The position numbers were made by a program, and so were the translations under genes. Below are positions 23,680-37,987 of a DNA stretch of 64,000 nucleotides, in pieces. Position 1 is the first letter of the stretch, and each line of letters opens with the position of its first letter. Source of the DNA: Auanema rhodensis (lineage: Eukaryota; Animalia; Nematoda); NCBI GenBank assembly GCA_964057225.1, contig OZ059899.1, positions 4,154,001-4,218,000 on the forward strand. Reading direction: 5' to 3'. The notes under the pieces are model-generated. The model saw only the letters and a list, made by a program, of their open reading frames with translations. It searched no databases and had not been told where the DNA came from.

Positions 23680-24016
23680 CGTTCCGTTATGCTCTCACGT
23701 CGATCCTATAGACCAATAAAGCCTACAAGATGAGTGTGATAGTATTCCAGATGAAGCGGTAGTTAAAGAGCATAGTGGATAAACATAAGACTCGAGAAAG
23801 AAAGGTTTATTATGTCTACATGATTACAATAAGTTATATAAGTCTACATAAAGATATAAAGTGAAAGAGACCTAAGAAAGGAAGACCAACCATCCATAGT
23901 CATTCCATAAGGCAAAGCTGAAGTCTGTGTTCCATATGAAGGGCGTGTCGTCCTCTCTCAGCCTCATGTCGTCTGATTCTAACCCGCCTGCTACGTATTG
24001 ATTTCCGAATGGAACG
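23680..24016. mobile_element. 337-bp insertion, probable solo LTR of a second LTR-retrotransposon family
   Basis: Flanked by 4-bp direct repeat TCTA (23676-79 / 24017-20). Ends are CGTTCC...GGAACG. Size and purine-rich layout resemble the LTR of the full element, but the sequence differs. Confidence 0.8.
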
Positions 24017-27200: not shown

Positions 27201-27849
27201 GGGGAATCGAACCCCAGACTTCTCGCATGCAAAGCGAGCGCTCTACCCCTGAGCTATATCCCCACATTCGACAGAATATATGACTGTGAGTTTGTTCAAA
27301 CTTGAAGAACCTCTTGATCAAAAATTTTAGTTGTGAATATTAATCTCCTAATCTAATTTTTGTTTCAATCATTTTGTAAATCTCCTGAAAAAAAAAATAG
27401 AAAAGTAAAGAACTTGAAGAATAAAACCAAAACTACTGTTGGAGATATGGGGAATCGAACCCCAGACTTCTCGCATGCAAAGCGAGCGCTCTACCCCTGA
27501 GCTATATCCCCACATTCGACAGAATATATGACTGTGAGTTTGTTCAAACTTGAAGAACCTCTTGATCAAAAATTTTAGTTGTGAATATTAATCTCCTAAT
27601 CTAATTTTTGTTTCAATCATTTTGTAAATCTCCTGAAAAAAAATATAGAAAAGTAAAGAACTTGAAGAATAAAACCAAAACTACTGTTGGAGATATGGGG
27701 AATCGAACCCCAGACTTCTCGCATGCAAAGCGAGCGCTCTACCCCTGAGCTATATCCCCACATTCGACAGAATATATGACTGTGAGTTTGTTCAAACTTG
27801 AAGAACCTCTTGATCAAAAATTTTAGTTGTGAATATTAATCTCCTAATC

Positions 27850-28232
27850 CGTTACATATTGTTTCTTCCCGTCTTTTCATGGTCGGAAGATATATGTACT
27901 TCTACCTTGTTCCTTAGGTAGGCAGACCCGAACGCCCCGATTTCCTTATTAAGACAAATACTTAAAGAGAAAAAGATTCATTATCAGATAACAAGAAAAT
28001 ACAATATAAGAATTACATTAAGAAAGAATATAAAGAGATCTAATAAAGTATTAAATAGAGTATATATATATAGATGATATAGAGATGAGACTCACATGGC
28101 TATAAGACAACCTATCTGGGTTAGGCCAGAAGCAAGAGTGCCATGTGTGTCCCATGTTGTGGGCGGGGCTTGTTCAGGCTCCCGCTATTTGAATAGCGCG
28201 CACATGTTTACCATGTGCTTGCAGATGTGACA
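27850..28232 (-). repeat. 3' LTR (383 bp)
   Basis: Matches 37603-37987 except (TA)6 versus (TA)7. Sense-strand ends are TGTCACA...TGTAACG. Confidence 0.96.
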
Positions 28233-28244
28233 TCCCCCCACCTT
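28233..28244 (-). promoter_or_regulatory. Polypurine tract
   Basis: AAGGTGGGGGGA directly abuts the 3' LTR and is preceded by a T run. Confidence 0.9.
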
Positions 28245-28841
28245 AAAAAGTTGAACGTCCTCGTTCAAAAACAAAATAAATTAATTCACTTTTTAAGATA
28301 GTTGGGTGTTGGAAAAAAAAATCATGGTGTAGTGGATAAAAAAAAAAAAAAGTGTATACAATACGATTTGAAAGTTTAGCTATTGTCTCTTCAAGTTTGT
28401 TGAATTCGAAATGTAGTATCGAGTAGATTCTATTCCATTCACTTGAGTAGTGAAATGCTTGCAAACGAGAGCTTTGCTTCTAAACCATTCGACTGTGATA
28501 TAGTCGTTCATTTTCTCGAGTTGTACAGGTACGGTGTTACCCTGAGAATAGGTCGAGCCCGTTCTGTACAAAAAAATGAAAACTCGTTTAACCCGTATGA
28601 CTAATGTCCATAAGGTGAATACAAGTAATGATTAAGTATAAAAAATAGCAAAATTCACAAGAGAATGTTGAAAAAAAAATCTACTCAATGAGAGTTGGAG
28701 TAATAAAACAAACTTTTGTAAAACAATAGCAGACTTCTCAGAGAAAATCAATCAACAACAAAGAAGTGGTACAATCAGAAATGGCACAAAATAAAAATAA
28801 AAAAATTTCAACAATTTGATTTTGTTAAAAAAAAACTACCT

Positions 28842-31800
28842 TCAAGAAATTGTGATAACCGGAATAGATGTTGTCCGTTGGTAAGGTTTGACGAAGTCCT
28901 TGTGTACTCTTCTGCTTTTTCCTTTATCTGTTTGAACCACGACGAAAGATCTTTGAACTGCTGTAACTAAATAAGGCCCTTCGAATGAAGGTGTTAGTTT
29001 GTTTCGAGTAGAATTCACTTTTATCATAACTAAGTCATTAACCTGAATTTCTTTATTTTGTGTTCTATTTCGTGTATTGTACCGTTGTTCATTCTTCTTT
29101 GTGCATGTTTCAATTCTATCTTTTACTATATTAGATGTGCTTTCATTTTGTATTAGCGATCTATTGACAAAATCTTCTGTAGGATTGGCTGGTTCTTCAG
29201 TTTGAAGATTATTTCCAGGCAATTGATGGTCAATAGGAAGTCTTGCATCCCGACCAAATAATACAACATATGGACTAATAGATGTTGATGAGTTTGGTAA
29301 CGTATTGATCGCAAACATAACTTTAGGTAGGTGTATATCCCAGTTAGTTTGTTGTTCATTCACGAATGAAGAGAGAGCTTCTTCTAAAGTTCTATGAAGT
29401 CTCTCAACTTGTCCATTAGCATTTTTATGATATGGTAGCGTAGTAGTGTGTTTAATTCCAAATTGTTTACACATAGCTTGAAATTCAGATGACAAAAAAC
29501 TACTACCATTATCGGTTATCATACTCATTGGTGGTCCATATATGAAAACAAATCTAATCACAAACGCTTTTGTGATTTCAGTAGCTGTTTGTGTTATTAA
29601 TGGGCAAGTTGTTCCCCATTTACTAAAAGCGTCTTGAATACTCAAGATGTATCGATGTCCATCATTAGTGCGAGGTAAAGGACCTAGTATATCTACATGA
29701 ATACGATCAAATGGCTTTTCGGGTATAACAAATCTTCCCATAGGTTGAATATACGATTGGTGTGGGTTAGATTTCCTACTTGCACATTTTGTACAACGAT
29801 TAATAAATTCAGTTATTTGTGGAACCATATTAGTCCAAAAGAATCGTCGTCGAATCGCATCAGTAGTTTTATTTATACCTAGGTGTGCACCAATTTTGGA
29901 ATCTTCATGAAAAAACTTGATAACAACATCAGTTATTTTGTCGTTACGAGGCAAAATAATAGATCGTTTCAAATAATTTTTCGCTTGTTTTGCATGTAAT
30001 ATGCCTTCTCGTTCTTCATACCGGTCTGATATATTAGCCGGACAGTTATCATTATTAATTTGAGAAAGTGCTTCGCGAATCCAGGGAACTCCAGCTTGAA
30101 CTTTCCGTATTTCTTCACAATTTAGTTGGTCAATAGAAGAAATAGTTGTGATATGAGCAATAAAAGCATCAACAGGTTTTACTTTGTCCTTTGGTTTAGT
30201 AGGACGACTGTCATTTGCTTCGTTTCCTATATACCTGGAGAGAGCATCACAGACACTGTTTAATTTGCCAGGACGATATTCAATCTTTATGTTGAAATCT
30301 TGTATCATTAGTTGATACTTGGCTAATCTACCTATGAGATCTTTACGCGACATTAAACTGGTTAATGGTCGGTGATCTGTGATAACTATGGTAGGTACTC
30401 CTAATACATAGGTACGGAATTGTTGAAGAGCAAAGACTAAACCGAGTGCTTCAACTTCAATAGGAGGATATTTCCGTTCCGCTGGAGTCAACTTTCTACT
30501 AGCGAACGCAATCGGGTGTAATGGAGAATTTTTCTCTGCTGATTGCAATAAAACTGCTCCCACAGCGATCATACTGCCATCACTTTCTATAACAAAAGGT
30601 TGGTCTGCTTTAGGAGGTTTCAGTACAGGGGCAGTACACAGTAATGTTTTTAAAGTTTCAAATGCGTCTGCATGTTCCGATTTCCACTCAAAAGGAGTAT
30701 CCTTATGTGTTAACTTATACAATGGCTCAGCTATTCCGGCATAATTTTGAATAAACCGTCGAAAATAGTTAGTCATACCTAGAAAGGATCTGACAGCCGT
30801 AACTGTGCTTGGATTTGGAAATTCGGAAACAGCCTGTATTTTAGCAGGATCTGGTTTAACACCATTTCTACCTATTATAAAACCCAAAAACTTTACTTCA
30901 GTGGCTGCAAAGCAACATTTAGATAACTTAATTTTTAACCCTAGTTCAGTGACCTTTTTCAGCACTTCTTGTATATCTCTTAAATGTTCTTCAGCTGAGT
31001 TCGAAATTATTAGCAAATCATCTAGATATACAAACAGTTTGCATCTAACAAGAGATTGCAAGTATCGTACTGCGGATTGAAAAGTGTGTGGCGCTCCACA
31101 CAATCCCATAGGCATTCGGCAATACTGATAGGTACCTGATGGAGTGGTAAAAGCAGTTAGGTGTCTATCTGAGCGTTTCAACGGTATTTGGAAGAAACCA
31201 GAAATGAGATCAAAATTCGAAAAGAACTGAGCTCCAGCCGCTACGTCTATGATATCAGGAATGTGTGGGATGCTGTATGTTTGTTTCTTAGTAACACTAT
31301 TCAATGCTCTAAAGTCAGTAACGAACCGGAAAGAATTATCTTTCTTTTTCACAAGAACAACCGGACTAGTGAAAGTAGCCGTCGAATTTTCGATTATACC
31401 TTGCGACAACATTTCTTTCACTTGCCGTTCTACTTCTTCTTGCTTACCCAATGGTACTCTGTAAGATCTACTTTTTGGAAAATCCATATCGGATCTTATA
31501 GGAATGGCATGTTCAACTGGTCCGCAAAAGAGACCAATATTATGATCATGGTTGAAAAATGCCGTTTGGTTTTCCTTAATGATTGTGATCAGATTTTTCT
31601 TCATTTTATGGGACAGAGTGCAAGAATTGAAGTTCAAATCATCCAAAAGATGCTGAGGAAAAGTTGGTAACTTATCTTCCCAATCAGCTTCAGGTGGAAC
31701 ATAATCGTTCATAATTTCTTTAGATGCTATAAGTCCTGAACCAATGTGGTCATTTTTATTAATTTTAATTGGCTTTGAAGAATTGTTTGATACTACCATA

Positions 31801-34800
31801 GTAATAGGAAAAGGTCCTATGGCGGCATCTGGAATTGAGATAGGACCTGTGCTAGATTTTAAAAGAGCATATTGATCAAAATCTAATTCTGGTCCTGTTT
31901 GCAAAGATATGTGGGAGGTACTATGTGGTGGAACTGTTACTGTGGACAAACTTATGATATTTACTGTTTTAGTTGTGGTTTTATATGCAAAACAACCAGG
32001 TTTTACTAAGGGTGTTTCCATATTACCAACAATCAACTTTCCTTTACATAGTTTTAATGTAGTAAATATCTCTCTTTCTTCCAACGTACGCATAAAATCA
32101 GTACCAAGTAACATTTGTCCTGGACAGTCATTGTCTTCAGATATTAAAAATTCGTGTTCCACTTGGTAACCTGCTATACCCACATCTAACTTGCATTTTC
32201 CCACAAAGCGAAACTCTGATCCATTTGCAGTGGATGCAGATTTAGAATATTTTGTAAAATATTGTCTTCCAATATATGCCAATGTGGAGAACGGAATATA
32301 TGAGACAGTAGCTCCAGAATCCCATAATGCTAACAGTCCTCTACCTTCAATGTCAATATGAACAAACGGTAACAAGTGTCCATTTTTCTTTGTTGTTGTG
32401 TGACATACAAAAGGTATGGCTAAAGGAATGTAAGTTATGATGGTGGGAAAATAGCTCCGCATCAATTCATCACTAACTGTTTCATGAATCTCATCTCCCT
32501 CAAGTGGTGGAGCTGTTGGGCTCAACATGATATGGTTTATTTTTAACATAGAAGTAGGGGAGAGATAACATTTTATAGTGAAATATAATGCTATCATTAG
32601 ACATAATATCAGAGTTATACAACCGATGGTAATGAGTGTTCGTTCAATTGAACCTATACAAAAGTCAATGAACAGATCCCAATTGGAGAAAACAATTTTC
32701 CTGGCATCTCTTATAAGTTTACTTCCTTTCAAGATGAAAGAGGAAATTTGAGGCCAATCATGTGAACGAGAAATTACGCGGAGAAGATCATGGTGAGGGG
32801 AAGTAGATAAACTATAACCATAAGTTAATCCAATAGATAGGGCTAAGGATTTTTCAGTCGAATTTTCAAACAAATTCCGCCCTGTGAATCGAAGTTTACT
32901 CAATTCAGCATAATGATCATGTTTTTCTGAATGAATACTATCTACTTTATGTGTGTCACCTTTATAATCTCTCCATGTTCCATTTTCATACCAAATCTCT
33001 GTCTCTTTGTGTTCACAATTGATCTCATGTCCTTCAGTGCTCAAATCGTAGCTATCGATAGGAGCAAAGAATAATTGTTTATCGTGTGTTAAAACAGGGG
33101 TCTCTGCGTAACATTTATCATTGTAAGAATGATTACGATAAATGAAATGTGGTTCTATTTCCTGACAAGTTGTTATTTTTAAAACATTTCTTCCAACAAA
33201 TCGGGCAACGATATCATCCCGCTGAAGCATAGCTCTTACTCCTATTGTAGGATGTATACGTAATATAGCTTGCCAGCTTTTTACAGTTTCCATTTGAGAT
33301 TTACAGATGGTATGAAACTGTTGATGAAATTCGTCAATTATGGAGAGACGCGCTTTCTCAAACCCATAATTCAACTTATTATCTATTATCGTTTTAGTTT
33401 TATGCTCTGATTTGTGGAGAACATTGTCATATACTTCTGCTACATACAACTCTCGACCTCTCTCGTACGCATTAGGGGTAGGAGTTGTTAAACTACGAAT
33501 TGTAGTTTTGGTGGCAGTTATTGGGGTTACAGTAGTATGATGTACCATATTTTTATCAGTTGTAATTTGAGTTTTAACCCAACTTATAAATTCTAAAACT
33601 TCTGTTTTATTGAATTTAGGATTTTCCTGTGGGTATTCGATGGACTGTGGAGGAAATCCATAATATGCTGTACTATTCTTTGTATAAAGGTTGTGATAGT
33701 CAGGCAGCTTGGATATAATTGCTAAATCTTGCTCTTGGTTGTTTCTAACAGTAGCATCAGCTTTTTGTTGTCGACTGACTTGCATGTCACGAGATATTTG
33801 TTCTTTTCCCGATTGTTGTTGGATCATGAATAACATGCCTTGAGCAGTTGCAATAATTTCAGATTGATTCATATTTCCACTGCGTGGTAATATAGATGGA
33901 TATAAGGCTCTTGCCAACTGTTCAATTGATGGAACTGTTTGTGTACCATCAAGAATTGTGGCTTGATATACTACTGCGTGAGCCATTCCTCGAAAGAAAT
34001 CTTCTATGGATGTTGTAGATTTCATCAAAGATCTTTTTAACCGAGGAACTTCTATACGACGAGCTACTTGAGTGATAAGATCATCCAATTTCATGCTATT
34101 AATCATCTGTCTAGTAGCCAGTTTAATTTCCTCTATACCCATACATTGTAAAATCAAAAGATTGGGATCTTTGAAATTATTAGACTTCGCCCAGTTAGTT
34201 ATGTGATCTTTTGTCAATCCTAAACTAACAATTGTGTCAATGAACAGTGGATTATCTATCGCGAATTGGAGCAAACTCTCATAAGATGATGTAGCTGCAT
34301 ATCTCATATATTTTGCGTAAAACTTAGTGATAGATGCAGATCCAAAAATGAAAGTAGGTCTTAGAAATGGAAACGCATATGGTTGGGATTTCGCATTAAC
34401 AAAAAGATAATCATCACTGAAAGACCGATGTTTTTGAGGTAATGCATTACGTTTATTTCTGCGTCTATCAGCATTAAGCAAAGTATTGGAAAGATCAAGC
34501 AAATTATAAACACGGGGATGTGCTGTGAATCGGATAATTGCCTCAGAAGATGATTCAAAAACAGCGAATTCGAAACAAGATTGAACGTGAGCGGATGTGG
34601 AATGATTTTGGAGAACAAAAGCGCTTTCAATAGAGTGAACTAGAAGAATATGATCACCCAACATGGCGGAGAAGGGGCCAAGTTTTTGATAGTGACAGAC
34701 AACTGATGGGATAGGTGGTTGCCAGATAACTGCACCTTCACCAGTTGCACAAAACCCTTCATTTCCTTTACAATTATCAGTATTTATAAATAAGTCTGAT

Positions 34801-35636
34801 ACAATGTGATCTTCTTTCAATCTAGTTATTATCCCTCGTTTCAATACAAATTGTTCAATTTCTACACATTCTTCAGTGGACCAAGAGCGAGTTGGATTAT
34901 GCTCGTTTAATGGTGTTTCAAAAACTGAATGCTGTTGGGCATTTATGATTTTATCATTCCACATACGATTTCTATGTGCTCGAACACAATCTTTCTTATC
35001 TACTGTTTCAATATGAGAGAATGTGGTGTTACGATCTCTCAAAAACATGAAATCTCTCACACAGCTTTTATACTTTTTCACATAGCATTTCCATGCTTCC
35101 CATGACTCTATCTCAGCCTTTGGTAGATATATTTCTACCTCAACACTGTGAGCCTTTTCAATTTCTGCCTTATGGCAGCCTGTGACCACAGGAGGTGTTA
35201 CTAATATACCCCCTTCAGATTGAGCGCAAATCTGATATTTTGCCGACCCAAAGGGAAGGCATGAGAGTGCCAATAAAGTCAGGCACAACGTGACCGGTGG
35301 CATGAATGGGGTCGCTACGCTGTATACCCTTGAGTTACCATTCCCATTGGCTGATGGTCTTTGTCTTCTTGGGGAACTAGGCCTAGGGTTCCAAGACGAG
35401 CTATTGGCATTTCTGCCATTCGCAAATGGGCGGTTTCCCGGGTTAGGACGCCTATTCATATTCCCGTTCTGCGAGTTATTATTCTTATAACGTACGGCAG
35501 AAGGTCGCTCTCTCTCTCGCTCATAATCATTAGAGCCATTATTGTGCTGAGTCCAGTTATTATTTTTTTTTATTATTTTTATTATTTTTATAATTTTTAT
35601 TATTATTATTATTCCTACTTCTTTCTCTTTCTTCAC
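28842..35636 (-). CDS. env-pol: Env-Pol polyprotein ORF (2264 codons): basic N/R-rich segment, signal peptide, glycoprotein, TM, protease, RT, RNase H, integrase
   Basis: Uninterrupted ORF. The listed start is GTG inside the gag overlap, so it is probably entered from gag or from an internal ATG such as 35303. Confidence 0.93.
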   Translation of the reverse strand: MKKEKEVGIIIIIKIIKIIKIIKKNNNWTQHNNGSNDYERERERPSAVRYKNNNSQNGNMNRRPNPGNRPFANGRNANSSSWNPRPSSPRRQRPSANGNGNSRVYSVATPFMPPVTLCLTLLALSCLPFGSAKYQICAQSEGGILVTPPVVTGCHKAEIEKAHSVEVEIYLPKAEIESWEAWKCYVKKYKSCVRDFMFLRDRNTTFSHIETVDKKDCVRAHRNRMWNDKIINAQQHSVFETPLNEHNPTRSWSTEECVEIEQFVLKRGIITRLKEDHIVSDLFINTDNCKGNEGFCATGEGAVIWQPPIPSVVCHYQKLGPFSAMLGDHILLVHSIESAFVLQNHSTSAHVQSCFEFAVFESSSEAIIRFTAHPRVYNLLDLSNTLLNADRRRNKRNALPQKHRSFSDDYLFVNAKSQPYAFPFLRPTFIFGSASITKFYAKYMRYAATSSYESLLQFAIDNPLFIDTIVSLGLTKDHITNWAKSNNFKDPNLLILQCMGIEEIKLATRQMINSMKLDDLITQVARRIEVPRLKRSLMKSTTSIEDFFRGMAHAVVYQATILDGTQTVPSIEQLARALYPSILPRSGNMNQSEIIATAQGMLFMIQQQSGKEQISRDMQVSRQQKADATVRNNQEQDLAIISKLPDYHNLYTKNSTAYYGFPPQSIEYPQENPKFNKTEVLEFISWVKTQITTDKNMVHHTTVTPITATKTTIRSLTTPTPNAYERGRELYVAEVYDNVLHKSEHKTKTIIDNKLNYGFEKARLSIIDEFHQQFHTICKSQMETVKSWQAILRIHPTIGVRAMLQRDDIVARFVGRNVLKITTCQEIEPHFIYRNHSYNDKCYAETPVLTHDKQLFFAPIDSYDLSTEGHEINCEHKETEIWYENGTWRDYKGDTHKVDSIHSEKHDHYAELSKLRFTGRNLFENSTEKSLALSIGLTYGYSLSTSPHHDLLRVISRSHDWPQISSFILKGSKLIRDARKIVFSNWDLFIDFCIGSIERTLITIGCITLILCLMIALYFTIKCYLSPTSMLKINHIMLSPTAPPLEGDEIHETVSDELMRSYFPTIITYIPLAIPFVCHTTTKKNGHLLPFVHIDIEGRGLLALWDSGATVSYIPFSTLAYIGRQYFTKYSKSASTANGSEFRFVGKCKLDVGIAGYQVEHEFLISEDNDCPGQMLLGTDFMRTLEEREIFTTLKLCKGKLIVGNMETPLVKPGCFAYKTTTKTVNIISLSTVTVPPHSTSHISLQTGPELDFDQYALLKSSTGPISIPDAAIGPFPITMVVSNNSSKPIKINKNDHIGSGLIASKEIMNDYVPPEADWEDKLPTFPQHLLDDLNFNSCTLSHKMKKNLITIIKENQTAFFNHDHNIGLFCGPVEHAIPIRSDMDFPKSRSYRVPLGKQEEVERQVKEMLSQGIIENSTATFTSPVVLVKKKDNSFRFVTDFRALNSVTKKQTYSIPHIPDIIDVAAGAQFFSNFDLISGFFQIPLKRSDRHLTAFTTPSGTYQYCRMPMGLCGAPHTFQSAVRYLQSLVRCKLFVYLDDLLIISNSAEEHLRDIQEVLKKVTELGLKIKLSKCCFAATEVKFLGFIIGRNGVKPDPAKIQAVSEFPNPSTVTAVRSFLGMTNYFRRFIQNYAGIAEPLYKLTHKDTPFEWKSEHADAFETLKTLLCTAPVLKPPKADQPFVIESDGSMIAVGAVLLQSAEKNSPLHPIAFASRKLTPAERKYPPIEVEALGLVFALQQFRTYVLGVPTIVITDHRPLTSLMSRKDLIGRLAKYQLMIQDFNIKIEYRPGKLNSVCDALSRYIGNEANDSRPTKPKDKVKPVDAFIAHITTISSIDQLNCEEIRKVQAGVPWIREALSQINNDNCPANISDRYEEREGILHAKQAKNYLKRSIILPRNDKITDVVIKFFHEDSKIGAHLGINKTTDAIRRRFFWTNMVPQITEFINRCTKCASRKSNPHQSYIQPMGRFVIPEKPFDRIHVDILGPLPRTNDGHRYILSIQDAFSKWGTTCPLITQTATEITKAFVIRFVFIYGPPMSMITDNGSSFLSSEFQAMCKQFGIKHTTTLPYHKNANGQVERLHRTLEEALSSFVNEQQTNWDIHLPKVMFAINTLPNSSTSISPYVVLFGRDARLPIDHQLPGNNLQTEEPANPTEDFVNRSLIQNESTSNIVKDRIETCTKKNEQRYNTRNRTQNKEIQVNDLVMIKVNSTRNKLTPSFEGPYLVTAVQRSFVVVQTDKGKSRRVHKDFVKPYQRTTSIPVITIS
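28870..29915 (-). other. Integrase (HHCC, DDE core, GPY/F module)
   Basis: H...H / CTKC zinc finger, HVDILGP, ITDNGSSF, NGQVERLHR, FEGPY. No chromodomain is evident. Confidence 0.95.
30235..30600 (-). other. RNase H domain
   Basis: ESDGS..AVGAVL, AFASRKL..AE..Y...E.EAL, TDHRPL, N.VCDALSR. Confidence 0.94.
30860..31590 (-). other. Reverse transcriptase domain
   Basis: SPVVLVKKKD..RFVTDFRALN, DLISGFFQI, TAFTTP.G.YQY.RMPMGL, YLDD, KFLG. Boundaries are approximate. Confidence 0.96.
32070..32370 (-). other. Aspartic protease domain
   Basis: ALWDSGATVSYI catalytic motif, TANG flap, MLLGTDF terminal motif. Boundaries are approximate. Confidence 0.92.
32575..35303 (-). other. env: Envelope glycoprotein domain, herpes gB-like class III fusogen (within the long ORF)
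   Basis: Signal MPPVTLCLTLLALSCLPFGSA, Cys-rich ectodomain with N-glycosylation sequons, RRRNKR and RLKR sites, gB-like segment KLNYGFEK...ICKSQ...HPTIG...ARFVG..VLKITTC...CYAETPV...EINC, and TM TLITIGCITLILCLMIALYFTI. The family call was made by eye. Confidence 0.82.
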
Positions 35637-36450
35637 TAAAGCTTAATTTATGTTGTAAAGCATTTATGAGCTCCTTCAAGGTGCTGGTGTCTTCATTTCT
35701 TTTCATGAAGCTATTCCGAACGCCTTCTTCAAACCTAGCTAATTTCTTAGCTTGTTCATAAGTGGCGGGGTTTTTAGTTAAAACCGCAATACCCAGTTCC
35801 TCTTTTAAACCATTTAAAAATGCCGTTTTCAACATTGGTTCCCGCTCGGGATCCATTGGTGACATTATGGTGCTTGCCATTCTCTCTAATTCCATACTAA
35901 AATCAAGAACAGATTTATCTCCTTGTTGTACTCGATGAATAAGCGCTATGGTGAAATTTTTATCTGTTTTAGGCGCTAAAAGCTCAGTGAGCTGATCCAT
36001 CAAAACAATCCATGGGCCATTAGTTCTTATGCCACTAGGAATACTATTATACAAGGAGAGAGCTGTTTCATTTGATTCCAAAAGAAGAGGCAAAATTAAT
36101 AGTCTCTCAGGTAAGCTTAGATTCATAACATTAAAAAATCTATTTAAAGATTCAACAAAAGAACGAAAGCTACGAGAGCCGTCATACCTGGGACAGAGAT
36201 GGCAATTCAAAATAGTTGCCATATTTCTAGAGGGTGGAGCAACATTAGAATTAGGAGATGGAGAGGTAGGAGTCATTTTTCTTTCAAAAGCTTTAGTTAT
36301 AGCAGCGGCCCACCGACTTGGTGATCTATTTCGTACTATAGTAGGTGCCCGAGGTGTTTCCTCAGTGATGGCCTTTCTGCTTTTACTTCTCGTTCTAATT
36401 GTTAGAGAAGAAGAGTGAGAAGAAGAAGAGGAATCACCTTCTTCTCTCAA
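35560..36450 (-). CDS. gag: Gag (capsid) ORF. The listed start is TTG; the first in-frame ATG is at 36276
   Basis: Position 5' of pol and retrotransposon capsid-like motifs (PRYDG...F..FV, QQGDKSVLDF..EL, AFLNGL...L, P.TYEQA..LA). No CCHC knuckle is seen. Confidence 0.88.
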   Translation of the reverse strand: MREEGDSSSSSHSSSLTIRTRSKSRKAITEETPRAPTIVRNRSPSRWAAAITKAFERKMTPTSPSPNSNVAPPSRNMATILNCHLCPRYDGSRSFRSFVESLNRFFNVMNLSLPERLLILPLLLESNETALSLYNSIPSGIRTNGPWIVLMDQLTELLAPKTDKNFTIALIHRVQQGDKSVLDFSMELERMASTIMSPMDPEREPMLKTAFLNGLKEELGIAVLTKNPATYEQAKKLARFEEGVRNSFMKRNEDTSTLKELINALQHKLSFSEERERSRNNNNNKNYKNNKNNKKK

Positions 36451-37589
36451 AAATTCAAAAGGAGAGAGGTAGGTGGATGGAGTATTTAAGTTTTTAGAAT
36501 TAAATTCAAAAACTTGGCGTACCTCTGGTGATCCTTGTTCCTGATCTTTGTTTTCCTCGCTGATGTCCGAGTCCGACAGGGTGGCTGGTGAATACAGTTA
36601 GATGAATATAAGAGCGCGTACTGGAAGCAACTAGACTCCAGTAAAAACGTTTGTGACAATGGCGTCTGATGAAGGAGGATCGTTGAAGCTTCAAGCTCCG
36701 CCTCCAGCCATGTGTCACGACACCAGATGTTAGCGCTTATGGTAAACAACCATTGACCGTCTGTCGTGATATTTGAATATTATAATCACTTATGTCAGCT
36801 TAGAGACAAATAAGGAATCACAGATGGTGCCTTAAGCCTGTTTGAAAACTTTTGAATTTTAACAGCTGTTATTGACTACACATGTCGAACAGCTGGTACG
36901 CGTGGGCCAACTATTTGAATGTGAGTAAGCTTAAAGTAAACAAAAATGTCTCATCTCGTATATTAAGTTCAATTTTATAAAGTTTATTAAGATTTGTAGA
37001 AAGAATTTCAAAATAAATCTTAATTAAGATAATTTTTAATTTAATTTCAAAAGATTTAGAAGGTAATTTAAGATTGATATAGGAATTCAAATTCAGTAAT
37101 CTGTCAATAATATAGGAAAAAGGAAACGTTGGCAGACGTAGAGTGGACTTGGGTGGGTAGGAATTTAAATATTCTTATTATCTCTGAACTAATAAGAAAA
37201 GAGTTAACAGGAGTAGAACCCTGATGAACCCTTGGATGTGAATCAAAATCAAAAATCGTAAATAAAATTATCCCAACAGCCTCCAGCTTCCAAACAACTC
37301 AGCTAAAAAGTGAGCTCTGTTGCCACACTGGACATTCACATCATAAAGTAATGAATCAAAATAGCACGCGCGTGCATAACAAAAAGGTAACGCTCGTCAA
37401 AACTATTGTCTGATAGTTTCCCCAAACGTCTCAGACACCTCCCAGTTTTTGTTGAGCGGAGGAGAAGTGGTAGCCAAAATAATTTTTGGGGAAATCATGG
37501 TGCACGGCTCGGTTACTCCTCACTGTTGGGTAATTAAGTCCAAAAGTCTCGTAAACTTCATGTCAATAAATTAACAGTAAAGTAAGCAA

Positions 37590-37602
37590 GGTGGAACCTC
37601 CA
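37590..37602 (-). promoter_or_regulatory. Primer-binding site complementary to the 3' end of tRNA-Gln
   Basis: TGGAGGTTCCACC lies immediately after the 5' LTR. Its complement GGTGGAACCT-CCA is the 3' end of eukaryotic tRNA-Gln as I recall it (not searched). Confidence 0.85.
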
Positions 37603-37987
37603 CGTTACATATTGTTTCTTCCCGTCTTTTCATGGTCGGAAGATATATGTACTTCTACCTTGTTCCTTAGGTAGGCAGACCCGAACGCCCCGATTTCCTT
37701 ATTAAGACAAATACTTAAAGAGAAAAAGATTCATTATCAGATAACAAGAAAATACAATATAAGAATTACATTAAGAAAGAATATAAAGAGATCTAATAAA
37801 GTATTAAATAGAGTATATATATATATAGATGATATAGAGATGAGACTCACATGGCTATAAGACAACCTATCTGGGTTAGGCCAGAAGCAAGAGTGCCATG
37901 TGTGTCCCATGTTGTGGGCGGGGCTTGTTCAGGCTCCCGCTATTTGAATAGCGCGCACATGTTTACCATGTGCTTGCAGATGTGACA
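37603..37987 (-). repeat. 5' LTR (385 bp)
   Basis: Direct repeat of 27850-28232, followed on the minus strand by the PBS. Confidence 0.96.

Follow-up and report, generated by a model that had tools for sequence, protein, structure and literature searches.

The window (64,000 nucleotides of Auanema rhodensis contig OZ059899.1) contains a recent Ty3/gypsy insertion of a kind already published for nematodes, and its lineage probably makes a membrane-spanning Gag-Env-Pol polyprotein that is cut later. The element covers 10,138 bp of the minus strand (37987-27850, Table 1), more than the interval 28842..36450 first given. The arrangement of its genes, with env upstream of the protease, had been put forward as possibly new. 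It is already in print: PMC13524379, which cites Sacco 2022, describes GAG-ENV-POL elements with gB-type Env in Nematoda, Bryozoa and Platyhelminthes. The present element is a further member of the nematode kind.

Table 1. Features of the element, in window coordinates.
Feature	Position	Strand	Characteristics
5' LTR	37603..37987	-	385 bp, ends TG...CG; self-BLAST and alignment
Primer-binding site, tRNA-Gln type	37591..37602	-	immediately 3' of 5' LTR
Leader	36277..37602	-	1,326 bases, 10 upstream ATGs
gag frame	35560..36597	-	345 codons between stops; first AUG at 36276
Capsid-like domain in gag	about 36063-35674	-	Pfam Retrotrans_gag E 2.6e-4, Ty3_capsid E 3.9e-3, both below cut-off
Skipped stretch	32420..36522	-	4,103 bases, GT...AG ends; probable-RNA contigs, 3/4 runs, one study
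gag/env-pol overlap	35560..35642	-	AAT/AAAAAT microsatellite, nine-A run at 35571-35563
env-pol frame	28842..35642	-	2,266 codons, one stop-free frame
Basic R/N-rich segment	35304..35459	-	in position and make-up, resembles the Gag C terminus of single-protein relatives
Predicted signal sequence	35241..35303	-	aa 114-134; hydropathy; internal in relatives
Predicted class III (gB / Monjiviricetes G-like) ectodomain	32640..35240	-	867 aa; two furin-like sites, aa 395 and 534
Env insert	approx. 33468..34448	-	Thr/Pro-rich, helical, low-confidence; spacing 555 aa vs median 300 in 86 homologues
Predicted transmembrane anchor	32574..32639	-	hydropathy KD 2.6; relatives
Cytosolic tail/linker	32370..32573	-	[VI]N-x-[VI] motif (aa 1035); conserved hydrophobic P-x-x-x-TYIP motif
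Aspartic protease	32079..32369	-	DSG at aa 1108; Pfam
Reverse transcriptase (YLDD)	30873..31352	-	Pfam RVT_1 E 6.4e-35
RNase H	30294..30686	-	Pfam
Integrase	28845..29936	-	HHCC finger, D-D-E core, GPY-type C-terminal part
Polypurine tract	28233..28244	-	abuts 3' LTR; read from sequence
3' LTR	27850..28232	-	383 bp; self-BLAST and alignment
Target-site duplication GATT	27846..27849; second copy 37991-37988	-	4 bp; 89 bases upstream of tRNA-Ala 5' end

The structural features of Metaviridae (Ty3/gypsy) were all found, i.e. two LTRs, a primer-binding site, a polypurine tract and a short target duplication. Likewise, Pol displayed the PR-RT-RH-IN order, Ty3-type domains and a YxDD motif (Pfam; YLDD and GPY motifs). 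Since the LTRs are all but identical (383/383 aligned bases and a single 2-base gap in self-BLAST and alignment) and every catalytic motif is intact (DSG, YLDD, HHCC, D-D-E and GPY), the copy is a young, recent and nearly intact insertion. Its primer-binding 12-mer is the exact complement of the Gln_UUG_CUG 12-mer of two Caenorhabditis elements, Clat_errantivirus_4 and Ctro_errantivirus_1 (PMC13524379, Supplementary file 1), tRNA-Gln sites being recorded in 8 of the 36 nematode rows of that file. The final 434 bases of the leader are free of ATG in any frame, as were those of 2/2000 shuffles. A chimera of two elements was ruled out by the single LTR pair, the single target duplication and the same layout in relatives. 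So was a BEL/Pao identity (Belpaoviridae with Env), by YLDD instead of YVDN, the lack of a Peptidase_A17 match (Pfam) and the upstream position of Env. A Cer1-like extra ORF was considered and rejected.

The first-pass annotation had read the order gag-ENV-pol from one open frame. ORF and Pfam analyses confirmed a stop-free frame with its domains in that order: basic segment, signal, ectodomain, transmembrane segment (TM) and PR-RT-RH-IN. A chance ORF was ruled out, the probability of 900 open codons at this composition being about 1e-24. Signal and TM calls were made from hydropathy plus comparison with relatives. The signal proposed at 35303-35241 falls on a hydropathy peak (aa 108-135), and 65/69 relatives displayed a signal-like stretch, preceded directly by a Met in only 13/69. 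The ectodomain agrees in length with the approximately 870 aa estimated previously. The TM placed at about 32640-32575 corresponds to the most strongly hydrophobic stretch in the whole protein and was found between Env and protease in 46/46 relatives. Pfam matches to the four Pol domains follow it in the expected order, with their catalytic motifs.

The ectodomain also bore out the expectation of a fusogen fold, which is predicted to be of class III from Foldseek and VIA comparisons with gB and viral glycoprotein models. The Env model used (mean pLDDT 57.9, pTM 0.38) was derived from a 16-row alignment with some RT pieces misaligned into its variable middle; a fold from the single sequence was unusable (pLDDT 34). 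All rows listed by Foldseek against PDB for the ectodomain model were herpesvirus gB (best E 1.8e-10), with whole-chain TM-scores of only 0.15-0.17. The best viral-model matches were glycoproteins of rhabdo-like and nyamivirus type (E between 1.4e-17 and 3.3e-14), a nyamivirus G occupying rank 4. With VIA, residues 25-262 of the Env model gave Z 10.5 (rmsd 7.6, 222 residues) and gB domain IV gave Z 9.4 (rmsd 3.2, 121 residues). A class I or II Env was ruled out by these gB and Monjiviricetes G matches. At the sequence level, a weak Pfam Glycoprotein_B match was recorded (E 3.7e-4, below the curated cut-off), and a PDB sequence search with Env returned nothing (one row, E 0.22). Flavivirus fusogens are of class II. 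The resemblance to flaviviruses initially suggested for the polyprotein topology thus does not extend to the fusogen, which is predicted to be of class III here. The long Env insert is common to relative P0121; no Pfam family resembled it (best E 0.04), and the Atlas gave no credible match (best 0.84). By eye only, it has a death-domain-like look.

A search for Env by shared words among proteins of 1,212-3,859 aa scored none of 1,756 candidates, and a word-free search provided 246 Env homologues. Among 150 Env homologues, Pol was located after Env in 48 and before it in 5, the other 97 giving no Pol match; two homologues with Env last carry Pao domains. Of the nearest 17 Pol relatives, 14 had Env and protease in a single protein, with Env first, and 2 more had a TM at that place. 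In an RT tree obtained by a quick method from 60 rows (search hits only, with neither an outgroup nor named Ty3, Cer, Mag or BEL references), Pol clustered with nematode Env-upstream elements in a 17-row clade (SH-aLRT 99). All its rows are Env- or TM-upstream, its named members are from nematodes, and the nearest rows bear the names Auanema and Heterorhabditis (68% over 399 columns). Gene models, which may hide introns, account for many of the relatives; 6 of the 10 Gag-Env-Pol relatives looked up came solely from Logan, ENA or JGI. Three such proteins take up most of their contigs (1,500 aa in 4,727 bases, 2,486 in 8,161 and 2,338 in 7,928), which therefore leave little space for introns. 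For the DNA of relatives, the env alignment contained no stretch sufficiently conserved for a search. With a PR-RT alignment, 0/52 were confirmed in viral contigs, and the 18/64 metagenome parts scanned provided 80 loci, none of them with env; short profile matches at these loci were traced to RT pieces misaligned in the Env alignment.

The gag frame matched Gag of relatives (up to 5e-19), and no CCHC finger was seen in it. The basic segment (aa 62-113; net charge +10 over the 80 aa preceding the signal) is, judging from its position and make-up, the tail of Gag, to which it is fused in relatives. The earlier notion that Env-Pol is a protein of its own, apart from Gag, is therefore not supported, since in relatives a single protein comprises Gag, Env and Pol (11/150 Env homologues and 6/120 relatives in another set). 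Sacco et al. are said to have described in 2022 such a continuous gag-env-pro-pol ORF, with a nyamivirus-like Env. Against a single polyprotein stands the organization of the present copy, where gag lies in a different frame from env-pol and ends at a stop codon directly 3' of the A-run; this copy itself thus lacks a one-frame three-part protein. AUGs at 35459 and 35303 could start Env-Pol alone. The frame change may be a programmed shift, a copy-specific break or a homopolymer assembly error, and the repeat in which it occurs displays TRF periods 3 and 9 (35557-35613).

Gag, Env and Pol at 1:1:1 fit capsid assembly poorly. If the shift at the A-run were programmed in this sub-lineage, most ribosomes would end after Gag and a minority would enter Env-Pol, providing the Gag excess that particles need. 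We consider this decidedly unlikely. It would suit a young copy with nearly identical LTRs and intact catalytic motifs, whose A-run leads straight into the gag stop codon, and Ty1 and Ty3 produce Pol by such a shift at the end of Gag (available sections of PMC5911963). Moreover, 12 of 23 Gag-before-Env homologues had no downstream Pol match, and many Env-Pol homologues had no Gag match. However, the site is within a mutable microsatellite with equal composition on both sides, reads break at the AAT/AAAAAT repeat in the runs examined, and the nearest Gag-bearing relatives have Gag in the same protein.

The out-of-frame gag would also suit an element that is dead or mis-assembled at the junction, with Env as a passenger and spread restricted to capsids inside germ cells, in the absence of Env-driven entry. 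Cer1, although devoid of a fusogen, still makes capsids in germ cells (available sections of PMC10309623 and PMC3315495), and the fusion activity of gB-type errantivirus Env is undemonstrated (PMC13524379, Discussion). This reading is nevertheless very improbable: Env has kept its frame open, together with its signal, TM and invariant cysteines, in different nematode genera at identities of 19-25%, and selection on Env is therefore implied. In addition, ten DNA runs contained 0.72-0.82 of the words of 28300-37600, against a maximum of 0.71 without env.

According to the preferred reading, that of a Gag-Env-Pol polyprotein, Gag, comprising the capsid and an unstructured basic tail for RNA binding, would be made in the cytosol. 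The internal signal would then thread the ectodomain into the ER, with signal peptidase cleaving after it, and the TM would halt transfer. PR-RT-RH-IN would thus hang from the cytosolic tail of Env. Provided that the frame is translated whole, this in-out-in topology is suggested by the conservation of signal, TM and in-frame Pol. Env trimers and Gag would gather at the budding membrane, where the protease could dimerise and free the enzymes, perhaps by cutting at the post-TM [VI]N-x-[VI] motif, which we take to be a candidate cleavage site. This motif, chosen from the alignment post hoc among relatives that share descent, was present in 25/46 linkers (0.016 per residue vs 0.0006 in the lumenal part). 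Furin would cleave the ectodomain; Pol would enter particles on the Env tail, as first proposed, and particles would enter other cells by fusion, germline cells being the most plausible targets. The question raised is how a protein that traverses the membrane of the ER two times can supply capsid, fusogen and enzymes in suitable quantities. The present copy offers several handles on it: the predicted signal-peptidase site, the conserved post-TM motif, the switch of frame where gag ends, and the splice donor and acceptor in probable RNA.

The latter form a GT-AG joint, seen in 3/4 probable-RNA runs, between a donor before gag (after 36523) and an acceptor at 32419, 33 codons before the catalytic Asp of the protease. 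None of these runs is recorded as RNA, their status being a software guess (likeness threshold 90), and the lack of env cover in the four probable-RNA runs was not counted as evidence. Because of this joint, a Pol made only from spliced RNA, which would refute tethering, keeps some probability. Pol would then come mainly from an RNA running from the leader to the pre-protease acceptor, as in foamy viruses, and the in-frame fusion would be unimportant; we regard this as unlikely. The joint removes exactly the gag coding part and env, and the pol frame continues through it without a stop from 36736. Foamy viruses are established to make pol mRNA by splicing (available sections of PMC7828637), and the nematode Cer1 uses splicing as well (available sections of PMC10309623). 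Yet, the joint contigs (depths 8-21, flanks 34-43 letters) rather resemble RNA, or DNA, from an internally deleted copy: all three exit pol after 34-43 letters at a 7-8-base microhomology and skip 3,291 bases (deletion joint 32386/29094). They consequently lack most of pol, and none listed continues from the joint into the protease. Furthermore, no pol-frame ATG precedes the donor, and the first one after the acceptor, at aa 1177, lies past the catalytic Asp. The residues over the acceptor vary in relatives (LAIP vs IIIP), and its rank is only 73/574 among AG sites by an ad hoc score that was not relied on. Finally, the joint comes from a single study. If the env-skipping RNA does make Pol, the element would provide a foamy-virus parallel in an invertebrate.

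Chary and Hayashi (eLife 2026, PMC13524379) described Ty3/gypsy 'errantiviruses' with HSV/gB-type ENV, including the 36 nematode rows. The present element, with its gag, env, pol order and a predicted class III Env carrying signal and TM, shares with their nematode elements, by description, gene order, gB-type Env, LTRs, a size of about 10 kb and the tRNA-Gln primer site. It differs in its long Env insert and in having gag in another frame. The main text of that paper contains none of the terms 'polyprotein', 'in frame', 'fused', 'splic' and 'frameshift', and topology and expression are therefore not treated there. Its figures define cysteine-bridge classes (C1a/d, C2a/c). As cited in it, Sacco et al. 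2022 (J Gen Virol 103:1739, PMID 35550022) reported nematode ERVs with ENV and POL flipped, which arose when a metavirus captured an RNA-virus glycoprotein. Atlas virus from Ancylostoma ceylanicum (Belpaoviridae) is likewise a nematode LTR element with Env within a single polyprotein (2,828 aa in one ORF, no stops or introns), but it displays a BEL/Pao RT (YVDN), a last-placed Env of class II phlebovirus-like fold and nothing after the TM (PMC9094657). Foamy viruses (Spumaretrovirinae) make Pol separately from Gag through spliced RNA, hence their use as comparator for the joint; in contrast, they are vertebrate retroviruses with gag-pol-env order and a pol with its own start (available sections of PMC7828637), whereas no AUG was found here for an RNA with the joint. 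Cer1 of Caenorhabditis elegans is also a nematode Ty3/gypsy element with one long ORF and a spliced sub-genomic RNA, yet in the available sections of PMC10309623 and PMC3315495 it has no fusogen, an extra ORF after integrase (CERV) and a Gag with a nucleocapsid domain.

The element is inserted within a tandem array of tRNA-Ala genes, where the empty-site motif occurs 118 times. The available sections of PMC5911963 tabulate Pol III-gene targeting for fungi and amoebae; if the site upstream of the tRNA is targeted, such targeting would extend to an animal. An element combining two Pol routes (an Env-tethered polyprotein for enveloped cell-to-cell spread and spliced RNA for an intracellular one) with integration aimed some 90 bases 5' of tRNA genes and AACG-3' LTR ends is an unlikely composite. 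In the literature searched, Sacco 2022 excepted, no paper was found on two Pol routes or on tRNA-upstream targeting for nematode gag-env-pol elements. The 351-bp satellite matched no Rfam family. AACG-3' LTR ends are atypical. A second LTR-like insert, of 337 bp, was located at most 2 bp from the same site, upstream of a tRNA.

LTRs of the Ty3/gypsy element (main element in the table) were identical at 383/383 aligned positions. Its primer site is fully complementary to the tRNA-Gln 12-mer that Supplementary file 1 of PMC13524379 lists for two Caenorhabditis elements; 8 of the 36 nematode rows in that file use tRNA-Gln. The gag frame displayed weak Gag/capsid matches (Pfam) and lies upstream of env-pol in a different frame. 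Protease, RT, RNase H and integrase were matched by Pfam in the second half of the env-pol frame, with a full set of catalytic motifs, while Glycoprotein_B matched weakly, below cut-off, at aa 755-846 (E 3.7e-4). By hydropathy, the env-pol protein has a signal-like peak at aa 108-135 and its strongest hydrophobic segment at aa 994-1030; the 867-aa ectodomain carries two furin-like sites (aa 395 and aa 534). These peaks and matches bear out the first-pass annotation, which had read signal, ectodomain, TM and Pol in one frame.

Features of the main element and its surroundings (window coordinates)
Feature	Position	Size	Details
Main element	37987-27850	10,138 bases	minus strand; polypurine tract, tRNA primer site, 4-base duplication GATT
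Upstream LTR	37987-37603	385 bases
Downstream LTR	28232-27850	383 bases
ATG-free stretch	36277-36710	434 bases	before first AUG of gag
Pyrimidine-rich AG	36621		candidate cis- or trans-splicing site
gag frame	36597-35560	345 codons	minus strand
env-pol frame	35642-28842	2,266 codons	minus strand; no stop
Predicted signal	35303-35241
Env insert	33468-34448	~250-300 aa	partly between furin-like sites
Predicted TM	32639-32574
Env-skipping joint	36523/32419	4,103 bases skipped	GT...AG ends
Skip in pol	within 29043-32386	3,291 bases	multiple of three
Apparent GT-AG intron	29082-29043	40 bases	one contig
Satellite	1-22782	351 bp	65 copies, ~98% identity
tRNA-Ala array	22790-64000	123 genes	248-base period; runs off window end
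Solo-LTR-like insert	23680-24016	337 bases	perfect 6-base inverted ends, 4-bp duplication TAGA

Here gag ends inside a microsatellite that includes nine consecutive A, and env-pol continues in the other frame; a programmed shift, a break peculiar to this copy and an assembly error are all possible causes. The leader ahead of the ATG-free stretch has 10 ATGs, and splicing at the pyrimidine-rich AG could shorten it. The region 28300-37600 was partly present in fifteen public runs from four studies. Ten runs contain 0.72-0.82 of its words, above the maximum of 0.71 without env, so the env segment is not confined to the window's assembly, although one of these runs may be the source of that assembly.

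The TM-to-RT stretch retrieved 208 proteins, the best 120 of which were examined; among these, the nearest Pol relatives are labelled as coming from Caenorhabditis, Auanema, Diploscapter, Heterorhabditis and Ancylostoma. Env stood before protease in the same protein in 14 of the 17 nearest, and two more displayed a TM alone at that place; over the 120, Env was present in 15 and Gag-Env-Pol in 6. Env homologues numbered 246; in the best 150, Pol followed Env in 48, preceded it in 5 and gave no match in 97, Gag preceded Env in 23, and 11 combined all three parts. Ten of these 11 were looked up: Logan, ENA or JGI is the sole source of six, and three take up almost the whole of their contigs. Of the fetched proteins, 69 had 100 or more residues ahead of Env, and 65 of these displayed a signal-like stretch (a Met just upstream of it in only 13 of the 69); a TM separated Env from protease in 46/46, a median of 95 residues from the catalytic Asp. 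The basic segment previously noted before the signal was present, but not as a part distinct from Gag: in relatives the pre-signal region, basic and unstructured, is continuous with the capsid domain, which makes the segment Gag's tail. In five homologues (P0152, P0166, P0167, P0195 and P0203) this Env family follows integrase; two of them were scanned and both displayed BEL/Pao-type domains, so the family is common to Ty3/gypsy and BEL/Pao elements.

A quick RT-RNase H tree compared the window with 59 search matches, the top 60 less P0055 (too short), its rows being search matches without named references. The comparison of env position with RT phylogeny, proposed in the first-pass annotation, yielded a 17-row clade (SH-aLRT 99) containing the window's RT and composed entirely of Env- or TM-upstream proteins, with Auanema and Heterorhabditis rows as closest neighbours; the likely host is accordingly a rhabditid nematode. 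The RT of P0059, an Env-before-Pol protein, forms a long branch apart from the nematode clade, in agreement with the published non-monophyly of GAG-ENV-POL elements (PMC13524379).

The gene order noted initially is already in print. Chary and Hayashi (PMC13524379) described HSV/gB-type ENV in elements with ORFs GAG-ENV-POL from Nematoda, Bryozoa and Platyhelminthes, and credited Sacco et al. 2022 with their first report in nematodes; their main text contains none of the strings 'polyprotein', 'in frame', 'fused', 'splic' and 'frameshift'. Atlas virus, a nematode belpaovirus, has a single polyprotein ordered Gag-Pol-Env (PMC9094657), in contrast to gag, env, pol here. The observation is real, and the element is well supported as a further member of the published GAG-ENV-POL kind. 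The abstract of Sacco et al. 2022 reportedly describes gag-env-pro-pol as one continuous ORF; the in-frame fusion would then be covered as well.

While a single-sequence structure model of Env was unusable, one built with 15 relatives (mean pLDDT 57.9) was confident over ectodomain residues ~1-265 and ~624-769; its middle was poor, and there the underlying alignment held misplaced RT pieces. Herpesvirus gB appeared in all listed Foldseek matches against PDB (best E 1.8e-10, with TM-scores of only 0.15-0.17), and the best viral models were glycoproteins of Beihai rhabdo-like virus 3, hemipteran rhabdo-related virus, Keturi virus and Nyavirus midwayense. In VIA-align, the fusion and PH domains aligned over 222 residues (Z 10.5, rmsd 7.6) and gB domain IV over 121 (Z 9.4, rmsd 3.2). 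The top Atlas match, weak and of low recognition value, was a Monjiviricetes_fusion cluster (0.91; 57% of its members have the family), and for this family relatives exceed the Pfam cut-off. The fusogen fold anticipated earlier was recovered, the model resembling gB and rhabdo-/nyamivirus-like glycoproteins, and Env is class III by fold. The Env insert was common to one Auanema protein only among the best 150 of 246 homologues, and Pfam and Atlas identified no family for it.

Given the signal and TM, the frame, if translated whole, would adopt an in-out-in topology with Gag in the cytosol, the ectodomain in the ER lumen and Pol, attached to the Env tail, again in the cytosol. Cleavage by signal peptidase would separate Gag from Env-Pol, so that Pol would reach particles on Env, not on Gag, and the element's own protease would free the enzymes. 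The motif [VI]N-x-[VI], picked after inspection of the alignment and a candidate protease cleavage site, follows the TM in 25/46 relatives (per residue 0.016 versus 0.0006 in the lumenal part) and also occurs upstream of the signal in several. We infer that such a membrane-spanning polyprotein, cut by signal peptidase and element protease, is the probable arrangement.

Less probably, Pol would be made from RNA spliced past gag and env. Foamy viruses make Pol from a spliced RNA (PMC7828637); our literature search found no report of spliced pol RNA for GAG-ENV-POL elements. The Env-skipping joint, which removes the coding part of gag and the whole env, occurred in 3/4 probable-RNA runs (contigs from four runs of one study, likeness 90, RNA status guessed by the tool), and the pol frame is open through it from 36736. 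Yet this open stretch has no ATG upstream of the joint, downstream of the acceptor the pol frame has its first AUG only beyond the catalytic Asp, and in 3/3 joint-bearing runs the contig exits pol within 34-43 letters, at a 7-8-base microhomology, to make the skip in pol. One contig also appears to lack the 40-base intron. Spliced RNA from a copy with an internal deletion would explain these contigs most simply, and by this reading the splice sites are usable; a full pol mRNA does not follow.

The main element interrupts the tRNA-Ala array (anticodons 116 UGC, 7 CGC) 89 bases upstream of one tRNA gene, and the solo-LTR-like insert sits in the same array, upstream of another tRNA at 91 bases from its 5' end. 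Both terminate in AACG-3' rather than CA; the insert displayed AATAAA and TATA-like motifs and no sequence similarity to the main LTR was found. Two sites within 2 bases of the 248-base unit have a chance expectation of ~2%, from two events only, which hints at site preference, although two tandem-array sites cannot demonstrate targeting. The tRNA-targeting elements tabulated in PMC5911963 are fungal and amoebal, and our literature search found no such report for nematodes. The joint reading, in which splicing is a second way to make Pol and integration is aimed at tRNA genes, appears unlikely. The 351-bp satellite, without tRNA or Rfam match, adjoins the tRNA array.
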